A stretch of DNA of 64,000 nucleotides from a virus, in the IMG/VR virus record IMGVR_UViG_3300023049_000005, positions 73,053 through 137,052 of that record. One strand, given 5' to 3'. A model generated the notes under the pieces. It was not told where the DNA came from and made no database searches. It saw only the letters and a list, made by a program, of their open reading frames with translations. Below, piece after piece: positions 220-50,595 of the stretch (within the stretch, counting starts at the first letter, position 1; every line of letters begins with the position of its first letter). Position numbers and translations under genes: made by a program.

Positions 220-223
220 TATC

Positions 224-297
224 CCCTCTTAACTCAGTTGGCTAGAGTACCGTGCTTTTAACACGGGAGTCGCAAGTTCGAGCCTTGTAGGGGGGAC
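224..297 (+). tRNA. tRNA-Lys (anticodon UUU)
   Basis: Manual fold: acceptor cccctct/agggggg (one G-U), D-arm actc-agttggctaga-gagt, anticodon stem ccgtg/cacgg loop cttttaa, T-arm gcaag-ttcgagc-cttgt, discriminator A. Confidence 0.7.
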
Positions 298-305
298 AAA
301 ATATG

Positions 306-393
306 CAGGTGTATCCGTAGTTGGTCGAACGGTCCCGCCTTTTAAGCGGATGAGTGAAAGCTCCAACGTGGGTTCGAATCCCACCACCTGCAC
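306..393 (+). tRNA. Type-II tRNA (long variable arm with GAAA tetraloop); best fold gives anticodon loop cttttaa = UUU (alternative registration would give Leu-UAA)
   Basis: Acceptor gcaggtg/cacctgc, 3-bp D-stem, anticodon stem ccgc/gcgg, 17-nt variable arm (gagt-gaaa-gctc), T-arm gtggg-ttcgaat-cccac, discriminator A. Confidence 0.6.
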
Positions 394-398
394 AAACG

Positions 399-471
399 GT
401 GATATAGCTCAGTTGGTAGAGCAGTGGATTGAAGATCCACGTGTCGGGGGTTCAAGTCCCTCTATCACCAC
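399..471 (+). tRNA. tRNA-Phe (anticodon GAA)
   Basis: Acceptor ggtgata/tatcacc, D-arm gctc-agttggtaga-gcag, anticodon stem gtgga/tccac loop ttgaaga, T-arm ggggg-ttcaagt-ccctc. Confidence 0.7.
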
Positions 472-479
472 AACATATT

Positions 480-553
480 CCCTCGTAGCTCAGTTGGTTA
501 GAGCTACCGACTTTTAATCGGTAAGTCACAGGTTCGAGTCCTGTCGGGGGAAC
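480..553 (+). tRNA. tRNA-Lys (anticodon UUU); body closely resembles E. coli tRNA-Lys
   Basis: Acceptor tccctcg/cggggga, anticodon stem accga/tcggt loop cttttaa, T-arm acagg-ttcgagt-cctgt. Confidence 0.7.
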
Positions 554-558
554 ATATG

Positions 559-630
559 GAAACTTAGCTGAGACGGTTTAGCGGAAGGTTGAAGACCTTC
601 AGAGGTGGGTTCGATCCCCACAGTTTCCAC
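559..630 (+). tRNA. tRNA-Phe (anticodon GAA), second copy
   Basis: Perfect acceptor ggaaact/agtttcc, D-stem gctg/tagc, anticodon stem gaagg/ccttc loop ttgaaga, T-arm gtggg-ttcgatc-cccac. Confidence 0.6.
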
Positions 631-636
631 AATATT

Positions 637-710
637 CCTTCGTAGCTCAGTTGGCTAGAGTAACTGACTCTTAATCAGTGGGTCACAGGTTCGAGTCCTG
701 TCGGGGGAAC
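637..710 (+). tRNA. tRNA-Lys (anticodon CUU); paralog of 480..553
   Basis: Acceptor tccttcg/cggggga, anticodon stem actga/tcagt loop ctcttaa, T-arm identical to 480..553. Confidence 0.7.
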
Positions 711-801: not shown

Positions 802-1926
802 TCAAATAATTATTATACCGTCTCTATTAGGCGAAACGCTTAAGATTTTTATTCTCTGATGGAGATTATCTTGTATATAATTAATATATTGTCTAAAGTT
901 AGGATCTTCTAAATCTGCTTTAACCCATGATTTGAAATCATAATATTTACCACCACAATAAATTTTAAGTGGGGTTATATTTTCTAGTACATCAGATTTA
1001 GTCATAATTAAATCAGTTACTCCATTTAATTCTATACTCTCTTTTAATTCATCTAAGTTTAACCAACCACATCTTCTTGGTCTGCCTGTTGTAGCACCAA
1101 ACTCCCCACCTGCCTTCTGTATTCTTTCGCCAAGTTGATTTTTTAATTCAGTTTTCATATCACCATTACCAACTCGTGTTAAATATGATTTAAACACACC
1201 ATATACTTTACCAACACTCTGAGGTGGCATTGCCAACCCTACACATGCACCTGAACTTACTGTATTTGATGAAGTAACATATGGATAAGATCCATGATCA
1301 ATATCTAACATAGTACCTTGTGCGCCCTCTGCTAGTATTTCACCTTCTTGGTTTCTTAACCAATTAGACTTAACGATATTTAATGTTTTAAGAAATTCCA
1401 TACCTACTCTAAAATGTTCGAACTCAAGGAATTCATCTTGGTCTTTACCCATTAAATCAACAGGTTCTATATTTAGATCGTTTCCAATAAAATCCACAAC
1501 TCTATAACCTTCTCGGTATATTTTATCTCGATAACAAGGTCCGATCCCCTTTGGGGTACTACCTATGGTTGACACATTCTCTTTATCTTCCATAAAATGG
1601 AAAGGAGTCACTACGTGTGCGTTTTCTGAAATGAAAATTCTCTCTCTTGCGTTGGGTATATGTTCTTCAACTTCTTTTATTTCTTGCATCAATTGAAATG
1701 GGTCGATAACCATACCATTACCCAAAAAATTCTTTGTGTGTTCATGTACTATACCACTTGGTATTAAGTGTAAAACTATTTTTATTCCATTATGATATAT
1801 CGTATGTCCTGCGTTTGCACCGCCCTGATATCTAGCAACAATATCATATTTTTTAGACAACATATCTGTTATCTTTCCTTTTCCTTCGTCTCCAAATTGA
1901 AGCCCTACTAATACGTCCATAAACAA
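802..1926 (-). CDS. purA: Adenylosuccinate synthetase (PurA family; PurZ-like alternative not excluded)
   Basis: 374 aa; near-identical N-terminal motifs to E. coli PurA (GDEGKGKI, YQGGANAGHT, LHLIPSG), GAQG..LDIDHG.YPYVTSS, GATTGRPRRCGW, TKSD (GTP-specificity K/D retained). Confidence 0.9.
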   Translation of the reverse strand: MFMDVLVGLQFGDEGKGKITDMLSKKYDIVARYQGGANAGHTIYHNGIKIVLHLIPSGIVHEHTKNFLGNGMVIDPFQLMQEIKEVEEHIPNARERIFISENAHVVTPFHFMEDKENVSTIGSTPKGIGPCYRDKIYREGYRVVDFIGNDLNIEPVDLMGKDQDEFLEFEHFRVGMEFLKTLNIVKSNWLRNQEGEILAEGAQGTMLDIDHGSYPYVTSSNTVSSGACVGLAMPPQSVGKVYGVFKSYLTRVGNGDMKTELKNQLGERIQKAGGEFGATTGRPRRCGWLNLDELKESIELNGVTDLIMTKSDVLENITPLKIYCGGKYYDFKSWVKADLEDPNFRQYINYIQDNLHQRIKILSVSPNRDGIIII

Positions 1927-6091: not shown

Positions 6092-7023
6092 GACTTACTA
6101 TTTGATTTTCTGCTTTTAACATATTTTTCAATACTCTGCTTGATTTGATCTTCTAATATTTTAGGATCTTCCATTAACTTATTAAAGATATATCTACTAT
6201 AATATTCAACAGGAGATTCATCGAAATCAAAGTTATCTTCCAAGAACTTAAATACTGTCTTATCGGGTATCTTTTCGTCAATTTTAAGATCTACTTTAAG
6301 GCTATGTGTTTTCTTAGCATTATCATATACTTTATTGCCTTTCTGAACTTCTTGTTGTTCCCTATCTAATCTTTGTTGTTCCCTATCTAATCTTTGTTGT
6401 TCAATTCTAGCATTTACATCTACTGCTTTAGGTTTTTCTTTTTTATCATATGCTAGATCTTCCAATGTAGCATCCGCACTCAGTTTTTCTTTTCCTTTAG
6501 ATGGGTTTGGTGTTTGTTTCCCATACTTATTAAGAAGCTCTTGTTCTTGCTCATCAGGTGTTAACTGTCTAGGTTGATGTTGTTCAACAACACTTGTGTT
6601 ACCAACATTAGGTTGGCGTTTTTCTACAACATTACCACTCATCTTTATATGTGATTGTTGACCATGTAGACCTAAATTAACAGGTGATAAATTAACATCT
6701 CCATCATCCCCAATAGAAATAGATCTATCATTAGTACTAGGGTTTGGGTTAGCGTTATTATTAACACTATTGTTGATACCTTCTAGCATTTGCTCGTATC
6801 TATTCTTAGGTGGATTTGGATCAGGGTTATGTCTTTCGACTACTGATTGGCTTTCGTTTATACTTTGGTTGTTATTGGCTTCACTAATTTGTTTATAAAA
6901 ACTAGAATCAGATAATCTCTCCACGGCTACTCGTTCACCGTTGTTTAATGTAGCGATATTGCTCTCTACGTTTTCAACTTTGACTACCCTTCCTTTACTA
7001 TCTTCAAATTTTAATCCCTTCAT
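6088..7023 (-). CDS. Hypothetical protein with internal tandem repeat (QQRLDRE x2) and N/P/S-rich low-complexity region
   Basis: 311-aa ORF; 21-nt perfect tandem repeat at 6355..6400. Confidence 0.5.
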   Translation of the reverse strand: MKGLKFEDSKGRVVKVENVESNIATLNNGERVAVERLSDSSFYKQISEANNNQSINESQSVVERHNPDPNPPKNRYEQMLEGINNSVNNNANPNPSTNDRSISIGDDGDVNLSPVNLGLHGQQSHIKMSGNVVEKRQPNVGNTSVVEQHQPRQLTPDEQEQELLNKYGKQTPNPSKGKEKLSADATLEDLAYDKKEKPKAVDVNARIEQQRLDREQQRLDREQQEVQKGNKVYDNAKKTHSLKVDLKIDEKIPDKTVFKFLEDNFDFDESPVEYYSRYIFNKLMEDPKILEDQIKQSIEKYVKSRKSNSKS

Positions 7024-7078
7024 AATTAAGGCTTTATTTTACTTATATAGAAAAAAACCACACTTTTGTTTAAAAAAA

Positions 7079-7112
7079 TAAGGGAGAAATATAAAAATAT
7101 TTCTCCCTTATC
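7079..7112 (-). terminator. Rho-independent terminator downstream of the gp32-like gene (aagggagaaatat...atatttctccctt)
   Basis: 13-bp inverted repeat flanked by A/T runs. Confidence 0.55.
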
Positions 7113-7133
7113 AATTTTTGATGACTATTCTTA

Positions 7134-8237
7134 TTAAAAGTCTAGTTCATCGAAGTCGTCGTCACCGACAGTTACTTCATCATCATCAAAACTTTCTAAT
7201 TCATCTGAATCACCACCATCATCCACATCATCAAAAGAGAACTCTTCGGGTTTTGTAGAGTCGTTAGAACTTGAACTACTAAAAGTTTTAGAAGATGCTT
7301 TTCCTGTTAAGAAATCGATAGCTTCTGATACTTTCTTTTGCATTTCTTCGTTCCATGCTTTACCTGCGAAAGATTCTAAATCAATATCTCTTGAAAGTAA
7401 CATGTTAACGATCTTTTCTTGGTGTTCTTTCTTGAACTTACCATCTTCCATAGGAACTCTGATGAATTTATATGATCCATCTTCTTCCTTAGCGATTGGA
7501 ATAGTTGTTGTTTCATCATAGAATCTACTCTTAGTGTAATCAGGAGCAGTAACTTCTTTGCCGTCTTGATTAGTGAAAGTATTCTCTTTGGCTAAAAGAA
7601 CAAAGTCTTTGCCTGTTTTTGGAGAAAATACATCACATGGTACACCTGTTGCTTCACCTTCTTTCTCACTTACGATAATGTCTTTGATTTGCTTTCCGTA
7701 AGAGAAAACCATGATTTTACCAACTAATTCAGGTTGTTGCTCATCTTCCAATATTAATACGTAAGAAAAATATTTCTTTTGGTATTTAATCTGATTAGCT
7801 TTCTCTTTCAAGATTGCGTTATCTGATTTACTTAATTGAAAGTAAGTTGTCGCCAAAGGACCGTACTTATCAGTAGAGTGTGGCTTCATTGTTTTAGGGT
7901 TGATGTTCGTTGGATCATCATAATACCCTCTTACATGAGACATTGCCTCGTTTTGGATATTTAGGTAGTGAGTCACTTTCTCAAAGTGAGCAGGACCTGA
8001 TGCTACTTCCATATCCTCATTGTACTTATCACCCGCATATGCTTTCATATACTCGTGGTTGTTTGTGAAGTTAGGTAGGAAACGCAATTTGGCTCTATAG
8101 CCCCTTGCTTTGTTTTCTGAACTAACTTTTTCTAGGTCTACTCTATATAGACCATCTTGTCCCCTTTCGGTACTTTTCTCCTCAAAGGACGTTTTTTTGC
8201 TTAATTTTTCGTCATCGAATAAATCTTCTGAATACAT
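7134..8237 (-). CDS. Single-stranded DNA-binding protein, T4 gp32-like
   Basis: 367 aa; AKLRFLPNF matches T4 gp32 AVIRFLPSK region; acidic Asp/Glu-rich C-terminal tail as in gp32. Confidence 0.7.
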   Translation of the reverse strand: MYSEDLFDDEKLSKKTSFEEKSTERGQDGLYRVDLEKVSSENKARGYRAKLRFLPNFTNNHEYMKAYAGDKYNEDMEVASGPAHFEKVTHYLNIQNEAMSHVRGYYDDPTNINPKTMKPHSTDKYGPLATTYFQLSKSDNAILKEKANQIKYQKKYFSYVLILEDEQQPELVGKIMVFSYGKQIKDIIVSEKEGEATGVPCDVFSPKTGKDFVLLAKENTFTNQDGKEVTAPDYTKSRFYDETTTIPIAKEEDGSYKFIRVPMEDGKFKKEHQEKIVNMLLSRDIDLESFAGKAWNEEMQKKVSEAIDFLTGKASSKTFSSSSSNDSTKPEEFSFDDVDDGGDSDELESFDDDEVTVGDDDFDELDF

Positions 8238-12428: not shown

Positions 12429-13463
12429 TTACTTATTGAACCTAATGAATGCGTTTTGTGTCATATGAACATATTCTGCCTTTCCTATAAATTCAACGAG
12501 ATTGCGTTTACCACAATAACTCATTGCGCTTTTTAAATAGTCTCTGAAATTCTCAGTCCAACCACTAAGAGTATATTCTACTTTGCTATACTTAGTAATA
12601 CCCTCACTAGTGGTTAGTTTTTTCTTTCCCCATTTCTTTTGAACTTCTTTAGTGGACATTCCTCTATAATATGAGAATATAATTTCTCCTTCTTTAAGAA
12701 GTTTTTCGGCTTTGTTGTTAGTTATCTCTATGTAGTTATCTTTTTCTAATATGTATTTAGGTGTACATGATTCTAATGTTTTGTTTAGAATCCCACCTAA
12801 CATAATATAATTTGCGCCAACCGCTAATGCTTTAATAATATCACTGAAGTTTCTAAACCCACCATCAGCTACTATCTTAGTATCATATCCTTTAGATCTC
12901 TTGATCTTAGCACACTCTTCTACCAATGATCCCATAGGATAATGTACTGATGTGTTTGCACTAGTCGTACAAGCAGACCCACCGCCTATACCACAACGCA
13001 CATAGTCTACACCTATTTTACCATATTCTCTAAAGGTTTCAGGGTTAGCTATATTACCTATCATTAATTCTTTATCAGGGAACTTCTCTTTGTATTCCTT
13101 GGATAGATCCAATAATTTTTTCATATGACCATTAGCAACATCTACTAATAATTTTTGTGGTGGGTTTTGGTTAATGCTAATAATATCTTCGAATTCTGAT
13201 ATACTGACAGAGATAAAATACTTATCTACGTCTTCGTTTTTCCATACACTATTAGTATCTTCTGTTCTTGGTATACATACCTCAAATCCCCTTTCTAAGA
13301 ATTTATCATAGTTTTCCATATCTACTACTGTATCCATGGGTGATACGACTAAGGGTAATTTGCCCCCTTTATAGTAGATGTTTACTTCACTTCTAGATTC
13401 TATATCAGAGATTGCTGCAGGAACAATAGTAATATCATTCCAATCGAACTTTAAATTATCCAT
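12429..13463 (-). CDS. guaC: GMP reductase (GuaC; IMPDH/GMPR family without CBS domains)
   Basis: 344 aa; aligns along its length with E. coli GuaC (VDVANGH, GIGGGSACTT catalytic Cys loop, VADGG, YIMLGG, FYRGMS). Confidence 0.8.
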   Translation of the reverse strand: MDNLKFDWNDITIVPAAISDIESRSEVNIYYKGGKLPLVVSPMDTVVDMENYDKFLERGFEVCIPRTEDTNSVWKNEDVDKYFISVSISEFEDIISINQNPPQKLLVDVANGHMKKLLDLSKEYKEKFPDKELMIGNIANPETFREYGKIGVDYVRCGIGGGSACTTSANTSVHYPMGSLVEECAKIKRSKGYDTKIVADGGFRNFSDIIKALAVGANYIMLGGILNKTLESCTPKYILEKDNYIEITNNKAEKLLKEGEIIFSYYRGMSTKEVQKKWGKKKLTTSEGITKYSKVEYTLSGWTENFRDYLKSAMSYCGKRNLVEFIGKAEYVHMTQNAFIRFNK

Positions 13464-17239: not shown

Positions 17240-17875
17240 TACACTATCGATAAAATCGTCTCTTTTTTTTGGATCTTTATTGTAAATACTTTTCAATATT
17301 TCCGATACTCCTTCTTCTATTTCTATTATAGAATTACCGATATCTTTATATCTAGTTAATTTCTCATGACTTTTAGGATCTGTTATCTCGCTGTTTAAGT
17401 CATTTATGATATTAATTACCTGCGTACTAAGACTATTATACACAATTCTATCTTCTTTGTCTAAATATTTTGCACATTCATAAGTATATTCTTTTATCAA
17501 ATCCATATATGCTTTAGTTATCCAAATGAAATAGCACAATTTAACAGTTTTCACGTACATCAGGATATCATAATGTATTTTACTAATAGGAGTTAATATG
17601 ATTCTCAATAGTATATCTACCTTTTTGTCACGATGATATAAGTTATTTCCATAAACATCGTCTTTTATATCATAATAGATAGTAATTCCGTGTGAAATTA
17701 AAACGAAAAAAGCACCACATATAAGTAAAGTAATTCCTATTTTTGAATGTACGGGGATTATAATAAACGAAAACAGAAATAAAAAAGTAACAAAGAACCT
17801 TATATAAAATAAACATCTGAGAGCAGAGGTAATAAATAATGAGATTCTATTTGATGTTGTTATAGTTCTATACAT
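17225..17875 (-). CDS. Polytopic membrane protein (>=4 predicted TM helices)
   Basis: 216 aa with long hydrophobic stretches in N-terminal half. Confidence 0.45.
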   Translation of the reverse strand: MYRTITTSNRISLFITSALRCLFYIRFFVTFLFLFSFIIIPVHSKIGITLLICGAFFVLISHGITIYYDIKDDVYGNNLYHRDKKVDILLRIILTPISKIHYDILMYVKTVKLCYFIWITKAYMDLIKEYTYECAKYLDKEDRIVYNSLSTQVINIINDLNSEITDPKSHEKLTRYKDIGNSIIEIEEGVSEILKSIYNKDPKKRDDFIDSVLKTN

Positions 17876-18317
17876 CCCTTTTTATCTTACGTAATACTTC
17901 TATTTGCGTATCATGTAATATTTCAAACGCTTCTTCTATTGATACCCATTTAAAATCATCACATTCAGGAAATGGTTCTTTTAATTTTTTACCACCTAAA
18001 TATACTACCATAGAGGTACATTTGAATGGATACTCATATAAAAAGCCATCATATTTATATAAGTATGATTTAAGTTGCTTCTTCCCACTTTTATATACAA
18101 CGATGTCATATTCTTTGATATAAGAACATTTTTCTAGCTTTCTGATGTCTAGATCGGTTTCCTCTCTAAACTCTCTTATAGCAGCATCTAAATACGCCTC
18201 GTTGGGATCTGCGTTACCTTTAGGTATACTCCAAAGATTAGGATCATGATTAGTAGGGTGTTCTACTAATAGTTCTTTGTTTTTGTTAAATAGGAATATA
18301 CCACATGTTGTTTTCAT
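17868..18317 (-). CDS. Nudix hydrolase
   Basis: Nudix box GNADPNEAYLDAAIREFREETDL (Gx5Ex7REUxEE). Confidence 0.7.
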   Translation of the reverse strand: MKTTCGIFLFNKNKELLVEHPTNHDPNLWSIPKGNADPNEAYLDAAIREFREETDLDIRKLEKCSYIKEYDIVVYKSGKKQLKSYLYKYDGFLYEYPFKCTSMVVYLGGKKLKEPFPECDDFKWVSIEEAFEILHDTQIEVLRKIKRDV

Positions 18318-18335
18318 GTCACAAAAATAACTATA

Positions 18336-18779
18336 TTATTTGAATAAATAACGTATTAATTTCTTAAAATGTGGCTCAACTAAATCTAGTGCTTTTTTTC
18401 TTTTACAAAGTTTTACTTTACGTATCTCTTTTTTATCTCTTTTTCCCTTTTCTAAATCTTCATATTCTTCCTTGGTTACTTTGATAATAAAGACATGTAA
18501 GTTCTTCTTGATACCATTCTTCTTATACGTATACTTAAAAGAACTATCAACTTGTCTTAATCCTATATCAATACCCGTTTCTTCCCTCATCTCTAAATAT
18601 GCATTATGAAATAAAGACTTATCTTCTTCGACATGACCTTTAGGTATCGAATACTTTTCGTCACCTTTGAACTTTTTGGGAAGGACTAAGCATATTTTTT
18701 TATTATCTACTATTAATGCTATCCCTGCTAGTTGATGTGATTCTTCTTTAAACGTGTTATATTCCTTAATTATGTACAT
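18336..18779 (-). CDS. Nudix-like hydrolase (divergent box GHVEEDKSLFHNAYLEMREETGI)
   Basis: Second Nudix-type motif immediately upstream of the first. Confidence 0.55.
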   Translation of the reverse strand: MYIIKEYNTFKEESHQLAGIALIVDNKKICLVLPKKFKGDEKYSIPKGHVEEDKSLFHNAYLEMREETGIDIGLRQVDSSFKYTYKKNGIKKNLHVFIIKVTKEEYEDLEKGKRDKKEIRKVKLCKRKKALDLVEPHFKKLIRYLFK

Positions 18780-19615: not shown

Positions 19616-20148
19616 CCTCCGTTAATATAACTTCTGATCATTCTATCTACTTGTTCTTTTACGAGTATTTTAAATTCAATACCTTTTGGTTTACAGTATG
19701 CTATTGTGTGTTCCCATTTTGCCATATTCCTATTATATTCATCTATTGCCCACTTATAATTTTTAAGTTGCTTCTGAGTTAACCTACTAGCATCTTTCAT
19801 TTTCGGTGGTCTAGTCTGTTCTTTCGGTTTCACCTCTAATAATATTTCTCTAATGCTTCCGTCCTTCATCTTTAATTTATAATAAAAATCAGGATAATAT
19901 CTATGTCTACTGATACTCACTATACCATGCTTATCAGGTTTCTTTAATTGATATGGTATTTCAATACACTCCGCACCCCATAATATAACATTAGGTTCGT
20001 TGTCAAAGTATTTCATAGCAGTTAATTCCCAAGAGCTTCTGTAATATAATCCACCTCTTTCGTTTAACTTATAAACCTTACTCGTATTAGTAGGTGTAAA
20101 TAATCCCTGTCTGTAATTTCCTTTCCCGTTTGGAACGCTATTTAACAT
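19612..20148 (-). CDS. PD-(D/E)XK-superfamily nuclease-like protein
   Basis: SSWEL ... RYYPDFYY ... LLEVKPK motif arrangement (E..PD..EVK). Confidence 0.45.
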   Translation of the reverse strand: MLNSVPNGKGNYRQGLFTPTNTSKVYKLNERGGLYYRSSWELTAMKYFDNEPNVILWGAECIEIPYQLKKPDKHGIVSISRHRYYPDFYYKLKMKDGSIREILLEVKPKEQTRPPKMKDASRLTQKQLKNYKWAIDEYNRNMAKWEHTIAYCKPKGIEFKILVKEQVDRMIRSYINGG

Positions 20149-20225
20149 AAACTTTTGTTGATTTTTAAGTATATAATAAAAAAGGGACTTTCCTATTTTA
20201 ATAGATAAAAAAAATAAATTATAAT

Positions 20226-20921
20226 ATGTTAATTATTAAAGACTACAATGCAGTAACCATTAAGAATTTAAAAGAAAATGGTATAGAATACGAAGTAAAC
20301 AAAGAATCAAAAATATTCACTTATCTAAAAAAGACCATCAATAAAATTTCTTTTGGTTATTTCTACAAAGAAGATACTAATATCATTGATCCATATAAAA
20401 TAAGTAATCGGTTAGTAGAAGCTGATCCAAACAAAGAGATATATAAGAATTTACCATTAGATGCCTTTGAGAATATAAGCGAAAAAACACTAGAAAATTA
20501 TCCCGATAAGTTTAATTGGAATACTATCTCAAAATTAAACTTATCAGAGCAATTCATACTCAATAATTTTTCTTTATTAAGCACAGAAATATTATCTAAA
20601 AAACCATTAGCCCCCGTTATTATAATAAATAAATATTTAGATCTAAATATAAGAACATTATTTGAAACCAACGATATGTGTAAAGTATATATCTATTTAT
20701 ATGATGTGATAGGAAAAAGAAAACTGACAGAAAAGGAATTAGAATTCTTAACATACCTTAATGTATTTAATATGATCAAAAAATATGATCAGAGATTAAT
20801 CGAACAAAACCGAGAGGATATAGTAAATGAGTTTATAGTTTCTGCTGATATGAAAAGAATTAAAGATATGAAAAGAATTAAAGATACATTTAATGAAAAA
20901 GTAACGGAAGATAATGAGTAA
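20226..20921 (+). CDS. Hypothetical protein with 7-aa tandem repeat MKRIKDMKRIKD
   Basis: 231-aa ORF; 21-nt tandem repeat at 20851..20892. Confidence 0.45.
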   Translation: MLIIKDYNAVTIKNLKENGIEYEVNKESKIFTYLKKTINKISFGYFYKEDTNIIDPYKISNRLVEADPNKEIYKNLPLDAFENISEKTLENYPDKFNWNTISKLNLSEQFILNNFSLLSTEILSKKPLAPVIIINKYLDLNIRTLFETNDMCKVYIYLYDVIGKRKLTEKELEFLTYLNVFNMIKKYDQRLIEQNREDIVNEFIVSADMKRIKDMKRIKDTFNEKVTEDNE

Positions 20922-21201
20922 TATCATTTTTGAACTAGTAGGTCTTATTTGTTTATCTACATTATCAGTAAACGCAACTCCTGTGTTATGGATAAGACAC
21001 AAATTAGGAATATATCAAATGGATGACGATAATAGCTTTTTAAAGAATAAGTTAATTGAGTTATTGTCTTGTCCTATGTGCTTAGGGTTTTGGATAGGTT
21101 TTGGATTTCTGATCACGTCCTATTCCCTATTTGATACTATTTTATTAGCAAGTATAATTTCTATTTTTTCTGAATTATTAAATAAGTTACTAAGAATGTA
21201 A
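20914..21201 (+). CDS. Small membrane protein
   Basis: 95 aa, two hydrophobic helices. Confidence 0.4.
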   Translation: MSNIIFELVGLICLSTLSVNATPVLWIRHKLGIYQMDDDNSFLKNKLIELLSCPMCLGFWIGFGFLITSYSLFDTILLASIISIFSELLNKLLRM

Positions 21202-21227
21202 TATATAAAGAAAAAGAAAATGTAACC

Positions 21228-21449
21228 ATGGATGAAAAAGTAAAACACATTATCAAAGAAGTACACGCAAATAATGGTAAAGTGCCTGCTCATATTGTAG
21301 ACCAAATGTTTGAAGTACATAACCAACTATTTCCTAAAACAATGGAATTCAATAAAGGGTGTGGTACGTGTAGAAAAAGGACATTCGGAAGAATTCAAAC
21401 ATATTTTAATGATAACATAAATAACCTAGGTAATACTTCTTTTGGTTAA
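21228..21449 (+). CDS. Hypothetical small protein
   Basis: 73-aa ORF. Confidence 0.35.
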   Translation: MDEKVKHIIKEVHANNGKVPAHIVDQMFEVHNQLFPKTMEFNKGCGTCRKRTFGRIQTYFNDNINNLGNTSFG

Positions 21450-21459
21450 TATATAGTTT

Positions 21460-22167
21460 ATGTATGTACTAAAAGAGAAGATCAAAGAATTACTTAAAAC
21501 GACATCTATCCCTAGTTTCTTTAAAGACAACTCGATGCGTTTCATGAAGTTATACCAAAGTCCCGATAACGATAATGTTAAAGCTGTTAATATGGCTAAG
21601 ATACAAAAGGGTGGAATATACTTTATGTTGTATCAAGATGAATCTAATTGGATGCAATACTCTCCTATACTATGTTGTGATTTCAGAGATAATAGATTAG
21701 TATTCGGTATAAACCTTAACTTCATTCCATTAGAAATAAGGTTAGAACTTTTTGATAATATCATAAATGATCTCGAAGAAAATAATAATCAACCAAACGG
21801 AACTACACCATTTAATTACATCACTTTCGAAAAGGCATATAAAATGTTATTAAGATATGGGTATGAATATGCTATTGTTGAATATGAGATTAGTAGAATA
21901 GCACAGGTCTATGATATAAAATACGAAGAACTCCCATATTGGATTTACTCTCAATACCCCACACTTAAATATGATCCTATAAAACTATATCAAATATGGG
22001 AAAGTAAATTAGCTAAAAGACCCGAAAGACATAAAGAGATGATCGCTAAATTAGTTAAAGACTTCTATAACGTAACTGATGAATTGATCGAGAACAGCGA
22101 TGCACTCAAAGGTCATCTACAAAGACTTAAAAGAAACTATGATAAGTTTGGAGATAAGTTTAGTTAA
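21460..22167 (+). CDS. Hypothetical protein
   Basis: 235-aa ORF. Confidence 0.5.
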   Translation: MYVLKEKIKELLKTTSIPSFFKDNSMRFMKLYQSPDNDNVKAVNMAKIQKGGIYFMLYQDESNWMQYSPILCCDFRDNRLVFGINLNFIPLEIRLELFDNIINDLEENNNQPNGTTPFNYITFEKAYKMLLRYGYEYAIVEYEISRIAQVYDIKYEELPYWIYSQYPTLKYDPIKLYQIWESKLAKRPERHKEMIAKLVKDFYNVTDELIENSDALKGHLQRLKRNYDKFGDKFS

Positions 22168-24118: not shown

Positions 24119-24493
24119 CTAAGGTAAATATTCTTTAGCATATCCTAAATCAATAAGTTCTTGGTTCAAATAAATTTGTTCTCCTGTTTCTTCATTGATA
24201 TAATAAATCTTAGCAAGGTATCTACCATACTTACCTGTTCTATCTTTAATAGATTGTATAATAACATTTTTTTCAAGGATTTTAGATCTGACATAATCTC
24301 TCGATATTCGACCCTGTTCTAATTCTTCACCACGCATTTCAGGTGTATCTATTCCATATAACCTCAACGCTACTCCTTTTCCTTCAAGTCCGTTTTGTTT
24401 TATTCCGAACCCTAGGTCGAAATGACATCTAATAGTATCACCATCGTAGACTGATACTACATATCCTCTATATACATATTCTGTTGTTATCAT
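24119..24493 (-). CDS. Staphylococcal-nuclease (SNase/thermonuclease)-like protein
   Basis: 124 aa; DGDTIR, RLYGIDTPE, GRYLAKIY motifs typical of SNc domain. Confidence 0.65.
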   Translation of the reverse strand: MITTEYVYRGYVVSVYDGDTIRCHFDLGFGIKQNGLEGKGVALRLYGIDTPEMRGEELEQGRISRDYVRSKILEKNVIIQSIKDRTGKYGRYLAKIYYINEETGEQIYLNQELIDLGYAKEYLP

Positions 24494-28778: not shown

Positions 28779-30401
28779 ATGGAACAAAAGTTACTTGAAA
28801 TATTTGAAAGTCCTCATAGGATGAGGGAAACGTATGTTAAAAAACATCACCCAAGTCTATATGATAGTATTATATCATATGTGGATTTTGACATTTCTTT
28901 CAAAGAAAAGCTTTGGTATTACTATAATAAACTAGAAGAAAAAATTACATGTAAGTGTGGTAAGGAAACTACGTTCAATAAGAATTTTAAAGACGGTTAT
29001 AAAAAATATTGCTCTGCTAAATGCGCACAGACAGCCGAATCTACTAAAGAAAAAAGAAAGAAAACTACTTTACATAAATATGGTGTTGATAATGTAGCTA
29101 AAAGTCAGAAAATTAAAGACAAGACCGAAGAAACCAATATCGAAAGGTATGGTCATAGATCTACGTTTCAAAATAAAGAAGTTCAGAGCAAATGGAAGGA
29201 AAATATTAAAAACAAATATGGCGTTGATCATATCTTCCAATCAGAGGAAGTAAAAGGAAAGATACAAGATACTATGAAGGAAAGGTATGGTGGACATTAT
29301 ACCAAAACCGATCATTATACAGATAAGCTTGGTGAAATTGGATTCAAGGAACTAATAAGGAAAAAGAAGTTAGATAAACACAAAGATTTTTTTAAAACAC
29401 ATGGTTATGAGTTTATAGAAATTAAAGATTATAGGAAATTCACCATAAAAAAGGATGATGATATATTCGAAATATATTGGGAAACTTTTATAAATAGGCT
29501 AGAAAACGGATATGAAATATCTACTAATATAAACCCATTATATTATACAGGTCAAAGTGAAAAGGAAAAGGAACTCATATCATGGATTAGGACATTGGGT
29601 GTAGAAATCGATGAATCTAATAGAAAAATACTAAATGGTAAAGAAATAGATATATTTCTACCTGAATATAAATTAGGAATAGAATTCAATGGTTTATATT
29701 GGCATAGTGAAATGAATAAAGAAAAGAAACATCATATAAACAAAACAAAACAGTTAAATGAATTAGGAATTAGTTTGGTACACGTATGGGAGGATGATTG
29801 GGATCATAAAAAAAATATAATACAATCTATTATTCTTAATAAGTTAAATAAAATATCTAATAAGATATATGCTAGAAAGTGTATTATAAAAGAAGTAAAT
29901 AGTAAGGAAACTAATTCCTTTTTAGATAAAAACCATATACAAGGTAAGTCAAAGGCTAATATTAAATTAGGTCTATATTATAGAGATGAATTAGTTAGCC
30001 TAATGACGTTTGGTTATCGTAATATAAACGGAACTAAGCAATATGAACTGATTAGGTTTTGTAATAAAATAAATAATATTGTCGTTGGGTCAGCTTCTAA
30101 ATTATTTAAATATTTTATTAATAATTATAATTATGATAACATCTTATCATACTCTGATATAAGTATGTTTGATGGCAAATTATATGAAATGTTAGGATTC
30201 GAAAACATGGGGGAAACTTCTCTAAACTATTGGTGGGTTGTTGATAAAAAGAGGTATCATCGGTTTACATATAATAAGAAAAAGTTGATCAAAGAAGGAC
30301 ATGACCCAAACTTGACAGAAAAGGAAATTATGTATTCTCTAGGTAATTATAGAATTTGGGGATGTGGTCAAATTAGGTGGGTATATAAAAAACGATATTA
30401 A
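28779..30401 (+). CDS. Homing-endonuclease-like multidomain protein (zinc ribbon + KYG... repeats + Vsr/DUF559-type PD-(D/E)XK nuclease domain + conserved C-terminal domain)
   Basis: 540 aa; CKCG..CSAKC; IDIFLPEYKLGIEFNGLYWHSE...LVHVWEDDW nuclease core; paralog of 48871..50595. Confidence 0.6.
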   Translation: MEQKLLEIFESPHRMRETYVKKHHPSLYDSIISYVDFDISFKEKLWYYYNKLEEKITCKCGKETTFNKNFKDGYKKYCSAKCAQTAESTKEKRKKTTLHKYGVDNVAKSQKIKDKTEETNIERYGHRSTFQNKEVQSKWKENIKNKYGVDHIFQSEEVKGKIQDTMKERYGGHYTKTDHYTDKLGEIGFKELIRKKKLDKHKDFFKTHGYEFIEIKDYRKFTIKKDDDIFEIYWETFINRLENGYEISTNINPLYYTGQSEKEKELISWIRTLGVEIDESNRKILNGKEIDIFLPEYKLGIEFNGLYWHSEMNKEKKHHINKTKQLNELGISLVHVWEDDWDHKKNIIQSIILNKLNKISNKIYARKCIIKEVNSKETNSFLDKNHIQGKSKANIKLGLYYRDELVSLMTFGYRNINGTKQYELIRFCNKINNIVVGSASKLFKYFINNYNYDNILSYSDISMFDGKLYEMLGFENMGETSLNYWWVVDKKRYHRFTYNKKKLIKEGHDPNLTEKEIMYSLGNYRIWGCGQIRWVYKKRY

Positions 30402-30444
30402 TTTTTAATATATACTTTAACAAAAAAATAACTTACTGATACTG

Positions 30445-30690
30445 ATGGAAAAAATAATTAAATCCTTTGCTACCTTCGCAAAATCTATTAAAGAAAATGT
30501 AGAAGAAGAGATGTTATCAACATGGACACTTACTGTATATGATGAAGATGATAACATTAGACATCAAGAAGATATTGATTCTGATGACGAACTCAAAGCT
30601 GAAACAACTGCTAGAAAAATGGTAGATAATATGGATGACTACTGTGACGGATGGGATTGGACTTTAATGCCTAAAGAATTCTTTGCTTAG
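30445..30690 (+). CDS. Hypothetical small acidic protein
   Basis: 81-aa ORF. Confidence 0.4.
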   Translation: MEKIIKSFATFAKSIKENVEEEMLSTWTLTVYDEDDNIRHQEDIDSDDELKAETTARKMVDNMDDYCDGWDWTLMPKEFFA

Positions 30691-30992
30691 ATATAAGACT
30701 TAAATACATATATCCAAATAGATATAACACCCACTAATATCAGTAGTGATATAACATATTCTTTTTTAGTAGCTTCATATTTCCTCCCGAATCCCACTGT
30801 GTTATCCATAGATAAAAATATTGCTGTACTCATAACTAAAGATAAAAGTGATGAATTCAAATTACTCATTCCCGTGTACCCAAATGATATACCTATAATT
30901 AACCAAAGACATATTAAAAATACAACACTCGAACTTAATCTCATAGTAGATTCCGTGTCCGTTGGCTTAAATGTTCTTAAATAATTTCTCAT
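30687..30992 (-). CDS. Small membrane protein
   Basis: 101 aa, 3 hydrophobic helices. Confidence 0.4.
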   Translation of the reverse strand: MRNYLRTFKPTDTESTMRLSSSVVFLICLWLIIGISFGYTGMSNLNSSLLSLVMSTAIFLSMDNTVGFGRKYEATKKEYVISLLILVGVISIWIYVFKSYI

Positions 30993-31504
30993 AATTTTTC
31001 TCTTGTTTTCATTAATACTTTTCCTAATCTATTTTCACCTGTCCAATTTTCTTCAAATAATATCTGATCATCCGAGGCTGATATACCCACCCCCCATTTA
31101 TTATCATATGGAGAAGCTTCGACAAGTGTTCTATCACCACTATCAACTAATGTTTTGTGGGCTTCTTTATTAAAAGTATATTTATGTAGACATACGTTAT
31201 ACATTACACCAAAGCTAATTTTATCCCATTTCTCAGCATCAAAGTTGGGTATAGATCTACCTATATTTTTAACTTTCTTAGGATCGATTTCATTAATACA
31301 TTTCTCGGCTAGTTCTAATTGATTAAAGAACATACACTTCTCAAACATATAAGCTTGCTCTGAATTATTAAAAAGGTACTCTTGTGTAATTTCCCCTGTT
31401 AATATATCATTCACTTTCTTTCTATATAAGAAAGGAGCAGGGTAGAAGTTTGAAAAAACATCTGCTACCGAAAAGAAATATATGTGTGTATCTGTTATTC
31501 TCAT
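30989..31504 (-). CDS. NADAR / YbiA-family (DUF1768) N-glycosidase-like protein
   Basis: 171 aa; FFSVADVFSNFYPAPF..SEQAYMFEK..GRSIPNFDAEKWDK..LVEASPYDNKWGVG matches YbiA pattern FS.FSNF...SEHYFQA.KF...GR...W...LVE.S..D.YWG.G. Confidence 0.7.
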   Translation of the reverse strand: MRITDTHIYFFSVADVFSNFYPAPFLYRKKVNDILTGEITQEYLFNNSEQAYMFEKCMFFNQLELAEKCINEIDPKKVKNIGRSIPNFDAEKWDKISFGVMYNVCLHKYTFNKEAHKTLVDSGDRTLVEASPYDNKWGVGISASDDQILFEENWTGENRLGKVLMKTREKL

Positions 31505-31512
31505 TGCTTTTA

Positions 31513-31551
31513 TATAAAAAAAAAGGAGATTAGTTTATAATCTCCTTTTTG
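31513..31551 (-). terminator. Rho-independent terminator (aggagatta-gtt-taatctcct flanked by A/T runs)
   Basis: 9-bp stem, T-run on minus strand. Confidence 0.55.
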
Positions 31552-31573
31552 TATATCTATTTTTATGTGTGTT

Positions 31574-32404
31574 TTATTTTAATCCTTTCACAACAGTAGT
31601 GCCTGCCCCGTATACATTATCAGTACCGTAAGGAGAACCTTTACCTTCTCTGAATCCTTGCCACTTTACGTATTCGTTATACTGTGGTGATCTAGCAAGT
31701 TGTTTTTGGATAAGTTGAATGTATTGAGATTCACCTTCTGCTTCTAATATAGTAGCTTGTTTAGTACCTTCTGCTTTCTTAATAGTAGCATTAGCTATGT
31801 ATTCTTGTTCTAATTCTAGTTCTTTAGCTCTTTGGTTTTTCTGCTTTTGTTCCTCTTTGCCCGTAATTGCTTTTCTTACATTATCAGGTAAGGTAACATC
31901 TGCGATCTCACAGAAATGATAGTCAATATAATTAGATCTAAATTCTCTGTCCATAAGCTCATCAAGTTCTAATTCTAAGGCTTCTCTTTTAGTAGAATAA
32001 ATTTCTTCATATGTATATCTACCAATGACATTCTTAATAGCTCCCTTTACAATAGGATCAATATAACTAGTTTCATATCCTACACCATGTTTTAAATGGA
32101 GTTTAGGTGTCTTATATTTAGCAGGGCTATAGTTAACTGTGATATCTACTGTGATATCCATTCCATTCTTTTCCATCACCGAGGATGAATAGTTTCTACT
32201 TTGTTGTAGAACATTATACCTAATAAGGTCATTCCAAGGTGCGATAAGCTGTGCGCCTTCTTTATAAACTGTTGATGTGTCTACACCATCATTATCCCAT
32301 GGTCTAAACATAAATGCTTCCTGACCAGGATCTACAACGTTAACACATGATGTCATTGATATTACTGCGATAGACATCGCAAAGATTTGAATTACTTTTT
32401 TCAT
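31574..32404 (-). CDS. SPFH/band-7 (prohibitin-like) lipoprotein
   Basis: 276 aa; signal peptide + lipobox MTSC; PHB-like core and C-terminal coiled-coil (QKQKNQRAKELELEQEY). Confidence 0.5.
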   Translation of the reverse strand: MKKVIQIFAMSIAVISMTSCVNVVDPGQEAFMFRPWDNDGVDTSTVYKEGAQLIAPWNDLIRYNVLQQSRNYSSSVMEKNGMDITVDITVNYSPAKYKTPKLHLKHGVGYETSYIDPIVKGAIKNVIGRYTYEEIYSTKREALELELDELMDREFRSNYIDYHFCEIADVTLPDNVRKAITGKEEQKQKNQRAKELELEQEYIANATIKKAEGTKQATILEAEGESQYIQLIQKQLARSPQYNEYVKWQGFREGKGSPYGTDNVYGAGTTVVKGLK

Positions 32405-32478
32405 ATTATTTTTATTTAATTTATATTAGACTATAAATATATGAATAAAAAAAGACCCAAACAAGGTTTAGGTCTTTT

Positions 32479-32861
32479 TTTAATGGAGTGGAGATGGAGG
32501 GAGTCGAACCCTCGTCACAGACACTTTAGTATAATACTTTCTACAAGTTTAGTTTACATAGTTAGGGTAAACACCTTAGTTAAACTTATTTTTTTAAACT
32601 GTTCTAATCAAACCAAAATTCAGTCCTTCTTATAATAACTGCTAAGAAGTTTGCAGCTTGGAGTTTTGTCGGTTGCTTAGACAGCTAATACAAGTTCTCC
32701 GTCTTGTACAGATTCCGTAGAATCTAATGCGTCTAAAACGTCAATCTTTTCAGATACTACGTTTAATTGTTTATCTACTAATTTATTAATCGGACACTTT
32801 AATAGACAATCCGATACTTGCTTACACTATCTGAAAATGACGCTCTAATCCAGTCACCCCC
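32479..32861 (-). ncRNA. ssrA: tmRNA (SsrA), phage-encoded
   Basis: 5' GGGGGUGACUGGAUU... pairs with 3' ...CAUCUCC-A (7 bp incl. G3-U70), T-arm GAGGGUUCGACUCCCUC, candidate tag frame ending ...GELVLAV-UAA at 32677..32730. Confidence 0.7.
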
Positions 32862-32926
32862 ATTTAAGTTTCATTATTTTATATATAAAAATATTAGAAT
32901 AAGTTTTAGCAAAATTAAATAAAAGA

Positions 32927-33481
32927 ATGGATAATAACAAATTAATAGTATTAGATATAGACGAAACTCTATTTCATTGTGAATATGAATTAGAGGATTT
33001 TGACTATGTGTTCGAAGAAGATAATATTATGTACTATACTAAGAAAAGACCTTATCTAGAAGAGTTTCTGAATTATATTAAAGGAAATTTCAAGTATGGT
33101 ATCTATACTACAGCAGGTGAAGATTATACTAAAATACACATGAAAAAGCTGAATTTAGACCCATTATTCCTCCTATCTTATAAAAATTGTACCCAAAAAA
33201 GGAAATTTAGTATGGGTGAGCAGAATGGATATACTTCTGAATGGTACTCATTAAAGAAACTTGATAAAGTAAAAAGGTATAGTGATAAATCTAATATGAT
33301 TGCTATCGATGATAAATGGGAAAGTTTTGCTAATGATTACGGAAACTTAATTAAAGTGAATCCTTTTACGGGTGATATAAATGATACTACCTTAAAGAAA
33401 CTTATGAAATATTTAGAAGATCTTAAAGGTGTGAAAAATATTAGAAAGGTTGAGAAACGGGGTTGGATGAGTAAATATTAA
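32927..33481 (+). CDS. HAD-superfamily phosphatase, NIF/FCP1-like
   Basis: 184 aa; LIVLDIDETLFH (DxDxT), KRPYLEEFL, IAIDD. Confidence 0.6.
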   Translation: MDNNKLIVLDIDETLFHCEYELEDFDYVFEEDNIMYYTKKRPYLEEFLNYIKGNFKYGIYTTAGEDYTKIHMKKLNLDPLFLLSYKNCTQKRKFSMGEQNGYTSEWYSLKKLDKVKRYSDKSNMIAIDDKWESFANDYGNLIKVNPFTGDINDTTLKKLMKYLEDLKGVKNIRKVEKRGWMSKY

Positions 33482-35725: not shown

Positions 35726-36097
35726 ATGGAATTAATAACAACTCATGTATGTATGAGAAAAGACCTAGGAGTGCATGGTAATCTCTTTGGTGGAATTTTA
35801 ATGTCGTGGTTAGATGAAGCTGCAGCAGCATATGCTTGTATAAAAGCAGATAGTAATAGAATGGTAACTCTTAAATTAAGTGAGTTAATGTTCAAAAAGC
35901 CTATTAGAGAAGGCGACTTAATTAAAATTTACGGTGAGGTATTAAGACTAGGTAGTAGTTCAATCACTTTAAAATTACTTGTTAAAAATCACAATCCTAA
36001 AAATGGAGTAGAAGAAGTTACGACTTCAACTGAAATAGTATTCGTTAAAATTGACGAAAATGGTAAACCCACTAAAATTAAAAAAGATGAAAATTAA
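35726..36097 (+). CDS. Hotdog-fold acyl-CoA thioesterase (YciA/4HBT-like)
   Basis: 123 aa; GNLFGGILMSWLDEAAAAYA motif. Confidence 0.6.
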   Translation: MELITTHVCMRKDLGVHGNLFGGILMSWLDEAAAAYACIKADSNRMVTLKLSELMFKKPIREGDLIKIYGEVLRLGSSSITLKLLVKNHNPKNGVEEVTTSTEIVFVKIDENGKPTKIKKDEN

Positions 36098-48870: not shown

Positions 48871-50595
48871 ATGCTATCAAAGGAATTCATAAAAGAGTTC
48901 AATTTCAATAATAAGTCAGGTAAGATGTCTAGTTCTAAATATGTATCAAAGAACTATGCTGCGGATTATGATATTATTATAGGTAATATTAAAGAAGATA
49001 TCTCATTTAAAGAGAAAGTATATCTAACTGTTAATGATATTAACCATTCTCCTAATTGTAAGAATCCTAATTGTAATGACAAGGTAAAATTCAGAAATAC
49101 TACTTTAGGGTATAGAGAGTATTGTTCTAATAAATGTATTGGTTCAGATCCTAATATGATCAAAAGAAAAGAACAAAAGTCTTTAGAAAAGTTTGGCACA
49201 AAAACACCTGCCGAATCAGAAGTAATCAAACAAAAAATGATCAATACTAATAATAAATTATATGGTGGTAATTCTCCTATGTCAAATAAAGAAATTCAAG
49301 AGAAATCTAAGAAAACTTTAATGGGTAATTGGGGTGTAGAAAACCCTAACAGACATAAAGATTTAACAGAAAAAAGAATTAAGAGTTTTAAAAAAAATAT
49401 AGATCAGTTTAAGGCTTCTTTCAAAGAAACTAGCTTAAAGAAATATGGTGTGGAACACCATTGGATGGTTAAAGAAATACACGATAAAGGAATTAAAACT
49501 ACTAATAAGAAAAAACTTCAAAAGGAAGAAACTAAAATTAAAAAGAGGATACCAAGTGATTATAAATTACTTGGAATATTCAAAGAAAGTGAATTACATA
49601 ACAGAACAAGTAGTAGGATGTTATGTAATAAGGGTCATGAATTTGTCATAAATAATGATCTTTTATATCATAGGACAGTTAAAAACGATACAGTGATATG
49701 TACTGAATGTCATCCTCAAAATAATAGAAGTGTAAGTGGATTAGAATTACAACTACTTAATTTCATCGAAGAAAGTTATGAAGGTGAAATCATAACTAAT
49801 AATAGAACTATTATACCGCCACACGAAGTAGATATTTATCTACCTGAAATCAAATTAGCTATTGAATTTAATGGTCTTTTTTGGCATAGTGAGATCAATA
49901 AGGACAAGTATTATCACTTCAATAAAACTAATGAAGCTGAGAAAGAAGGCATACAGATGTTACATATTTGGGAAGACGATTGGCTATTGAAGGATGATAT
50001 AGTTAAATCTATGTTAAAGAATAAATTCAATAATACTCCTAATAAAGTATTTGGTAGAAAATGTAAAATTAAAAAAGTTGGCTCTAAGGAATACAGAGAA
50101 TTCTTAGATAATAATCATATACAAGGTTATTCTAATTCTACTTACTCGTATGGTTTGTATTATAACGAAAAATTAGTTAGTCTAATGACCTTTTCTAAAC
50201 CAAGGAATATGATGGGACATAAAAGTAGAGATAATGTTTATGAGTTAGCTAGGTTTTGTAATAAGACTAATTACAATATAGTAGGTGGTGCTTCTAAATT
50301 ATTTAAACACTTTATAAAAGAACATTCTCCTAAAGAAATATATTCTTTTAGTGATAGGTCATATTCTAATGGTAATCTTTATAAGATATTAGGGTTTGAA
50401 TATAGTCACAGAAGTAAAATAAATTACCATTGGGTATTAAACAAAGAGAGAAAGCATAGATATAATTTTGCTAAACATAAACTAGTAGAAAAGGGATACG
50501 ATCCCAATTTATCAGAAAGGGAAATTATGTATGAACAAGTGGGTGCTTATAGAATATGGAATAGTGGTCAAGATAAGTGGGTTTATCACATATAG
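48871..50595 (+). CDS. Homing-endonuclease-like multidomain protein, paralog of 28779..30401
   Basis: 574 aa; CKNPNC..CSNKC, EVDIYLPEIKLAIEFNGLFWHSE...LHIWEDDW, shared C-terminal domain (YRIWNSGQDKW). Confidence 0.6.
   Translation: MLSKEFIKEFNFNNKSGKMSSSKYVSKNYAADYDIIIGNIKEDISFKEKVYLTVNDINHSPNCKNPNCNDKVKFRNTTLGYREYCSNKCIGSDPNMIKRKEQKSLEKFGTKTPAESEVIKQKMINTNNKLYGGNSPMSNKEIQEKSKKTLMGNWGVENPNRHKDLTEKRIKSFKKNIDQFKASFKETSLKKYGVEHHWMVKEIHDKGIKTTNKKKLQKEETKIKKRIPSDYKLLGIFKESELHNRTSSRMLCNKGHEFVINNDLLYHRTVKNDTVICTECHPQNNRSVSGLELQLLNFIEESYEGEIITNNRTIIPPHEVDIYLPEIKLAIEFNGLFWHSEINKDKYYHFNKTNEAEKEGIQMLHIWEDDWLLKDDIVKSMLKNKFNNTPNKVFGRKCKIKKVGSKEYREFLDNNHIQGYSNSTYSYGLYYNEKLVSLMTFSKPRNMMGHKSRDNVYELARFCNKTNYNIVGGASKLFKHFIKEHSPKEIYSFSDRSYSNGNLYKILGFEYSHRSKINYHWVLNKERKHRYNFAKHKLVEKGYDPNLSEREIMYEQVGAYRIWNSGQDKWVYHI

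Follow-up and report, generated by a model that had tools for sequence, protein, structure and literature searches.

Counter-defence by phage NADAR proteins is already known: such proteins were catalogued between 2012 and 2022, and neutralisation of DarTG1 by them was shown in 2024-2025. The literature describes four NADAR families, namely the DarG1/BC4488 antitoxins, the T4-type "phage NADARs", the YbiA-type proteins and the stand-alone "NADAR family". In the DarG1/BC4488 antitoxins the catalytic position is occupied by Asp, the N-terminus carries a basic extension and a DarT1 gene lies alongside; the T4-type proteins (AdfN-T4, gp30.3) have His at this position and consist of the core fold only; and both the YbiA-type and the stand-alone proteins have Glu. 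All NADARs tested so far, from all four families, hydrolyse ADP-ribosylated guanine (G-ADPr) in both DNA and RNA; ADP-ribosylated cytosine (C-ADPr) is also removed by the families of Glu type. Phage NADARs from three clades, AdfN of T4, Bas32 and Bas60, neutralise DarTG1, and AdfN-Bas60 rescues DarTG1-sensitive phages and neutralises DarT1 (Johannesman et al., Nat Commun 2025, 16:1598). The same authors set apart a "second, larger set" among the phage NADARs, whose members are similar to bacterial NADARs that belong to neither the YbiA nor the DarG1 group. An intact active site is no guarantee of counter-defence in vivo, since in uninfected cells neither YbiA nor T4 AdfN relieves the toxicity of DarT1.

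NADAR genes are common in large phages. By tblastn, relatives were present in 795 of 50,697 phage records, including Kayvirus, myoviruses of Listeria, Bacillus and Enterococcus, phi92- and phAPEC8-like coliphages, jumbo phages and Lak megaphages. A single peptide pattern retrieved 254 relatives from IMG/VR, mostly on contigs longer than 100 kb, and when 1.84 billion cluster representatives were scanned exhaustively with HMMER, 9,264 matched at E<=0.001 and 3,829 at E<=1e-10. The best matches of the exhaustive search included several very large proteins (P0088, 4240 aa; P0090, 1075 aa; P0094; and P0136) with four to seven tandem NADAR-like stretches.

The NADAR gene described here lies in a 64,000-nucleotide stretch of viral DNA, which we refer to as the window (Table 1). 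The initial annotation had placed an open reading frame of the NADAR/YbiA family (DUF1768) at this site without stating its strand; the boundaries proved exact, and the frame is on the minus strand. The four motifs on which that assignment was built all occur in the translation: FSNF at residues 17-20, SEQAYMFEK at 48-56, the G82/R83/W93 set, and LVEASPYDNKWGVG at 127-140. The assignment itself was borne out by matches to Pfam NADAR (PF08719; 144 bits where the curated cut-off is 35.1, E=6.3e-42, with 153 of 163 profile positions covered), PHROG 1017 (E=5e-47), NCBIfam TIGR02464 (135 bits, cut-off 73.7) and, from sequence alone, PDB 8BAU, the NADAR of Phytophthora nicotianae (PnNADAR; E=9e-12). 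As sequence matches these are far beyond chance. The ATG start is supported by homologues that have the same N-terminus, MRxTDTHIYF. An identical protein is present on three independent assemblies, the longest of which is a 270,756-bp contig, and hmmsearch with the family profile against all six-frame ORFs of the window revealed no second NADAR.

Table 1. Features of the window and of two related megaphage loci (positions are those of the window unless another record is named).
Feature	Position	Strand	Remarks
Cluster of six tRNAs	223..710	+	Lys-UUU x3, Phe-GAA x2, Lys-CUU; 6/6 confirmed by Rfam
Adenylosuccinate synthase-like auxiliary gene	802..1926	-	
IMPDH/GMP-reductase-like auxiliary gene	12429..13463	-	
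Nudix hydrolase gene, first of tandem pair	17868..18317	-	faint NadM-Nudix similarity
Nudix hydrolase gene, second of tandem pair	18336..18779	-	faint NadM-Nudix similarity; weakly like the YffH/AdpP ADP-ribose pyrophosphatase family
Staphylococcal-nuclease-like auxiliary gene	24119..24493	-	between portal and prohead protease genes
Homing-endonuclease-like gene (DUF7487)	28779..30401	+	phrog_3339 "homing endonuclease", E=1e-126
101-aa predicted membrane protein	30687..30992	-	ORF; hydrophobic segments ~19-41 and ~79-99
NADAR-domain protein CDS	30989..31504	-	171 aa; ATG start; TGA stop inside end coordinate
W137 codon	31094-31096	-	read from DNA
D134 codon	31103-31105	-	read from DNA
E129 codon (GAA)	31118-31120	-	read from DNA
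W93 codon	31226-31228	-	computed from ORF start
R83 codon	31256-31258	-	computed from ORF start
K56 codon (AAG)	31337-31339	-	read from DNA
E49 codon (GAG)	31358-31360	-	read from DNA
S18 codon	31451-31453	-	computed from ORF start
TATATAA promoter-like motif	31510..31516	-	ends 6 nt before NADAR ATG; putative promoter
Intrinsic-terminator-like hairpin	31520..31550	-	13-bp stem, T-run; between SPFH stop and NADAR start
SPFH/Band_7 protein	31574..32404	-	lipoprotein-type signal MKK...MTSC; phrog_200 "lipoprotein"
Phage tmRNA	32486..32861	-	between SPFH and NIF phosphatase genes; ~1 kb from NADAR
NIF/FCP1/Dullard-like HAD phosphatase	32927..33481	+	Pfam NIF, E=3e-30; like eukaryotic CTD phosphatases
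4HBT thioesterase auxiliary gene	35726..36097	+	
Homing-endonuclease-like gene (DUF7487)	48871..50595	+	
YbiA-type NADAR, then DPPY gene, LR756502 (L100)	20248..20709 and 20994..21944		
YbiA-type NADAR, then DPPY gene, LR745206 (L099)	19997..20470 and 20467..21417		

The fold agrees with the family assignment. An AlphaFold2 model built with 74 homologues in the alignment had a mean pLDDT of 97.6 and a pTM of 0.91, Foldseek searches with it gave TM values of 0.82 and 0.71, and the YbiA-like alpha-helical core fold is present, together with N-terminal beta-strands at residues 7-10, 25-33 and 37-45. The initial annotation had proposed a structure prediction as a check and had named the lack of a NADAR fold as the outcome that would speak against it; since the AlphaFold2 model and Foldseek agree on the fold, this objection falls. 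In PnNADAR, E43 positions the distal ribose, K50 binds the diphosphate and E125 is catalytic (Schuller et al. 2023, PMC11543638). Alignment to the 8BAU sequence pairs these residues with E49, K56 and E129 of the window protein, and R79, W89, D130 and W133 with R83, W93, D134 and W137. S18, E49, K56, R83, W93, D134 and W137 are all present and invariant in one or both of two alignments; across the 74 homologues, the invariant positions are S18, E49, K56, G82, W93, K108, E129, D134 and W137. The sole ADP-ribose contact that is not conserved is PnNADAR R93, which is Ser in the window protein. Mutation of the residues equivalent to E49 and K56 in T4 AdfN (E36A and K43A) abolishes counter-defence (Johannesman et al.), and in Streptomyces SCO5665 a change of the residue that corresponds to E129 (E167D or E167Q) abolishes activity. 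By residue conservation, the product is thus predicted to be a catalytically intact, single-domain enzyme.

We placed the protein among the known subtypes by pairwise scores and diagnostic residues. By BLASTP, it matched Staphylococcus Kayvirus phiSA12 gp011 with 126 bits, Phapecoctavirus tuntematon gp050 with 88, the phi92-like phage protein Paula_0095 with 83 (E=2e-24, 30% identity), the partial sequence of PnNADAR with 61 and E. coli YbiA with 40 (28% identity), and neither BLASTP nor phmmer detected significant similarity to T4 gp30.3. Despite the T4-type structural module of the window, phmmer found no gp30.3-like gene among its six-frame ORFs. E129, within LVEASPYD, sits at the position of PnNADAR E125 and SCO5665 E167. 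By its sequence, the window protein is a Glu-type stand-alone NADAR and belongs to neither the His-type T4 AdfN nor the Asp-type DarG1 clade; on the same scores and residues, it therefore falls within the second, larger set of Johannesman et al. The nearest type with an experimentally tested member is AdfN-Bas60, reached through Paula_0095, whose gene is 97.6% identical at the nucleotide level to one in the BASEL phage PaulScherrer (MZ501100); since the BASEL phi92-like phages are Bas60-62, Paula_0095 is of the AdfN-Bas60 type. A place in the DS-32 family of anti-phage defence NADARs (NCBIfam NF053876) was rejected, with 51 bits against a cut-off of 240. A PADLOC candidate model, PDC-M42C, matches the protein with 96 bits; this model has no curated threshold and also matches YbiA and the Bas60-type protein. 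One "E. coli" match among the relatives (L153) was considered as a sigma70-linked NADAR and dropped, as it showed no similarity to the rpsU-dnaG-rpoD region.

On the minus strand, the NADAR gene follows the gene for an SPFH/Band_7 lipoprotein and precedes that for a 101-aa predicted membrane protein. The ATG of the membrane protein overlaps the NADAR stop codon (ATGA), and the two genes are probably co-transcribed and translationally coupled. The membrane protein had no match in Pfam, PHROG or PADLOC, and no homologue of it was found by tblastn in 88 loci of NADAR relatives or by BLASTP against the NADAR-flanking ORFs of four relatives. The hairpin between the SPFH and NADAR genes is the sole terminator-like site in positions 30400-33000, which speaks against NADAR being just the second member of an SPFH operon. 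Motifs of the ATATATA/TAATATATAAG/TATATAA type are enriched approximately 9-17-fold in the 60 nt upstream of window genes (ATATATA precedes 37 of 71) and often end just 4-10 nt ahead of the ATG (e.g., genes starting at 42229, 28779 and 34119). This distribution suggests that the motif may serve as a phage-specific promoter with very short leaders. Promoters were considered as a guide to expression timing and set aside: because the motif precedes structural and accessory genes alike, NADAR included, no timing class can be assigned to NADAR.

The initial annotation had argued for an anti-defence role partly from the SPFH and membrane-protein neighbours. This part of the argument carries no weight, because the hairpin separates SPFH from NADAR, NADAR has a TATATAA element of its own, and neighbours differ in every relative examined, including those that are 57-68% identical; a functional link to these neighbours was accordingly rejected. 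Tblastn with the SPFH, membrane, NIF and Nudix proteins, a search which detects fairly close homologues only, found none in the loci of the 88 relatives, and a divergent Band_7 gene lies approximately 4 kb from the NADAR of a more distant relative (L010). The proposal of counter-defence itself stands as the best supported reading; for homologous phage proteins it had been demonstrated before.

Two further observations concern this region. The C-terminal half of the SPFH protein showed a weak PADLOC match to Cas6f (E=4e-5), which we judged most likely spurious. An 81-aa, strongly acidic ORF at 30445..30690 on the plus strand (22 D/E against 9 K/R) is convergent with the NADAR unit and might be a candidate DNA-mimic-type protein; the loci of the relatives contain no homologue of it.

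The window carries a T4-type morphogenetic module with Gp23 capsid, T4 portal, prohead protease, gp32 and large terminase genes. The best matches to its capsid protein come from the 635-642 kb "megaphages" LR745206 and LR756502, with 57-58% identity, and from the 735-kb LR756501/3, with 48%; phages of Tenacibaculum, Prevotella (Lak) and Chryseobacterium come next. A Shine-Dalgarno-like core was seen in only 2 of 71 window genes. The capsid relatives and the scarcity of such cores point to Bacteroidota as the probable host. Background on these megaphages is given in PMC9723777.

LR756502 and LR745206 carry a different NADAR, a YbiA-type protein of 153-157 aa encoded approximately 3.5 kb downstream of the capsid gene and followed by a DPPY-motif methyltransferase-like gene. 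These NADARs score 80-88 bits against E. coli YbiA and 36-46 bits against the window protein. The ORF directly after their capsid gene has a "HAKGVPGSHVVIR" motif, which may resemble an NFACT-R/DUF814 domain. A NADAR has been kept in the lineage while its allele and surroundings change, as would be expected of accessory genes in host conflict, and the pattern fits selection for function combined with allele turnover. A search for a bacterial donor or host was uninformative: the best bacterial and metagenome-assembled relatives were at most 41% identical (best segment) and scattered over many phyla, and some of the "MAG" contigs that carry relatives are themselves phage-sized. In another relative (P0009, contig L006), whose NADAR is 57% identical to that of the window, a patatin-like phospholipase gene (6982..7920) lies approximately 470 bp downstream with one ORF between; the presence of patatin genes in megaphages has drawn comment before (PMC9723777).

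The tmRNA was called by ARAGORN with an unusually long predicted tag (VVSEKIDVLDALDSTESVQDGELVLAV*) and matched Rfam RF00023 over its full length (E=1e-20; 59.3 bits for a gathering score of 47), with good alignment in the tRNA-like domain and PK1 and poor alignment in the middle. TmRNAs have been reported before in related megaphages, in Mar_Mega_1 (PMC9723777). One of the Lys-UUU tRNAs is 89 nt long (305..393) and may have an extra arm or intron. The first of the two large homing-endonuclease-like genes directly follows the major capsid gene; the second belongs to the terminase region, where the order is terminase, 1269-aa ORF, homing-endonuclease-like gene. The NIF-like phosphatase had no PHROG match.

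The analysis establishes directly that the product belongs to the NADAR family, has the NADAR fold, keeps its active site intact and stands alone, that the gene comes from a phage and that NADAR genes turn over within the phage lineage; the reading that we favour on balance is that its product acts as an ADP-ribosyl-nucleobase glycohydrolase on G-ADPr in single-stranded phage DNA, in the service of counter-defence. The ADP-ribose moiety would be bound via K56, R83, W93, D134 and W137, with E49 positioning the distal ribose. E129 would then cleave, by hydrolysis, the N-glycosidic link from ribose C1'' to the exocyclic amine of the modified base, so that ADP-ribose and the base in its unmodified form are set free. 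Of the possible substrates, ADP-ribosyl-guanine in single-stranded DNA of the phage is the likeliest; with Glu as catalytic residue, the enzyme would probably take ADP-ribosyl-cytosine and RNA substrates too. In its likeliest role, the enzyme would erase ADP-ribose put on the replicating phage genome by a host DarT1-like or other nucleic-acid ADP-ribosyltransferase, and phage replication could continue. The tandem Nudix enzymes of the window might act downstream of ADP-ribose release.

The enzyme could instead degrade soluble molecules that contain ADP-ribose (e.g., cyclic ADPR variants and other immune signals, toxic ADP-ribose derivatives, or by-products of RNA repair or NAD+ turnover), and would then serve NAD+/ADP-ribose metabolism or the quenching of a signal while infection proceeds. 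This has been proposed for most phage NADARs from their co-occurrence with SLOG, Macro, Nudix and NAD+ salvage genes (Iyer et al. 2022), and in locus L010, cpYpsA/SLOG, Band_7 and NUDIX genes do lie no more than 6 kb from the NADAR. The window also holds the tandem Nudix pair, one member of which weakly resembles AdpP; however, the pair lies 12 kb from NADAR, no SLOG, Macro or NAD+ salvage Pfam match was found among the window genes, and every experimentally tested NADAR acts on base-linked ADP-ribose. We regard a soluble substrate as unlikely.

A quite improbable further reading is that this Glu-type NADAR, predicted to act on guanine as well as cytosine in DNA and RNA, is aimed at a still-undescribed nucleic-acid ADP-ribosylating defence of Bacteroidota hosts, with the swap of NADAR subtype close to the capsid gene in the megaphage lineage as the footprint of an arms race. 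The target of such a defence could even be RNA, with the phage tmRNA 1 kb away and the phage's own tRNAs in mind. A literature search found no DarTG1-type system tied to phage defence in Bacteroidota.

It is also highly improbable that the protein reverses marks made by an ADP-ribosyltransferase of the phage itself, for self-immunity or temporal regulation, or that it is a non-enzymatic, ADP-ribose-binding inhibitor of an NAD+-consuming defence effector. NADARs of T4-like phages are often early genes near ADP-ribosyltransferases (e.g., T4 alt beside the 30.x cluster), but no gene in the 64-kb window has a Pfam match to an ADP-ribosyltransferase family. A catalysis-independent anti-defence role of a phage NADAR protein, connected with Retron-Eco1, is cited by Johannesman et al. 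(their ref. 36); for the window protein, strict conservation of the full catalytic set across the 74 homologues speaks for catalysis and not for binding alone.

Least probable of all is a YbiA-like housekeeping "damage-control" N-glycosidase acting on reactive riboflavin-pathway intermediates as an auxiliary metabolic gene: the protein does pass the TIGR02464 model ("riboflavin biosynthesis intermediates N-glycosidase"), shares the catalytic Glu of YbiA and has homologues frequently auto-annotated as "ribA/ribD-fused" or "GTP cyclohydrolase II", but TIGR02464 is non-discriminating because the Bas60-type anti-DarTG1 NADAR also exceeds its cut-off (110 bits), phage and stand-alone NADARs score much closer than YbiA, the protein is single-domain with no riboflavin gene (ribA/ribD) or fusion found by Pfam in the window, and in the published phylogeny the majority of phage NADARs other than the T4 type fall outside the group of YbiA housekeeping proteins.

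We thus return to base-linked ADP-ribose and counter-defence as the probable function. The gene is a sound but ordinary further example of a known counter-defence and opens no new question. If the protein is active, AdfN-type enzymatic counter-defence would extend to a megaphage-related lineage, probably of Bacteroidota, and the protein, compact at 171 aa and modelled with confidence, would be a Glu-type NADAR on which to test specificity for guanine or cytosine and for DNA or RNA.

The locus can be set against each of the known systems. E. coli YbiA (PDB 2B3W) is a riboflavin-intermediate N-glycosidase of weak similarity, whose gene shares a LexA-controlled operon on the chromosome with dinG and ybiB, whereas the window NADAR is a phage accessory gene. 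DarG1 (BC4488 family, PDB 8BAT) belongs to the same superfamily, and the same chemistry, guanine-ADPr hydrolysis, would be expected of both; however, the window protein lacks the catalytic Asp and the basic N-terminal beta-beta-alpha extension, and its gene is adjoined by those for the 101-aa membrane protein and the SPFH lipoprotein rather than by a DarT1 ADP-ribosyltransferase gene. PnNADAR (8BAU), SCO5665 and the sigma70-linked NADAR of E. coli are cellular, not viral, with approximately 30% identity, and the stand-alone Glu-type family has been described with short N-terminal helices, where the window model has beta-strands instead. AdfN-T4 is likewise a single-domain phage NADAR that keeps the Glu and Lys of the SEQ..K helix and has the same proposed role, but it has His for the catalytic Glu, Glu129 in the window protein, and removes G-ADPr and not C-ADPr. 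The AdfN-Bas60 type of phi92-like Justusliebigvirus differs in its sequence (only 30% identity), in an insertion of approximately 7 residues after helix 2 which the E. coli proteins have and the window protein lacks, and in its source, an E. coli myovirus as against a T4-type megaphage relative with a probable Bacteroidota host. It resembles the window protein in being a stand-alone phage NADAR of approximately 170-180 aa with the N-terminus MRITD..FFFS..FSNW/F, the VEASPYD..(W/Y)G and NW.G.N.LGK motifs, a catalytic Glu and an N-terminal beta-hairpin insertion.
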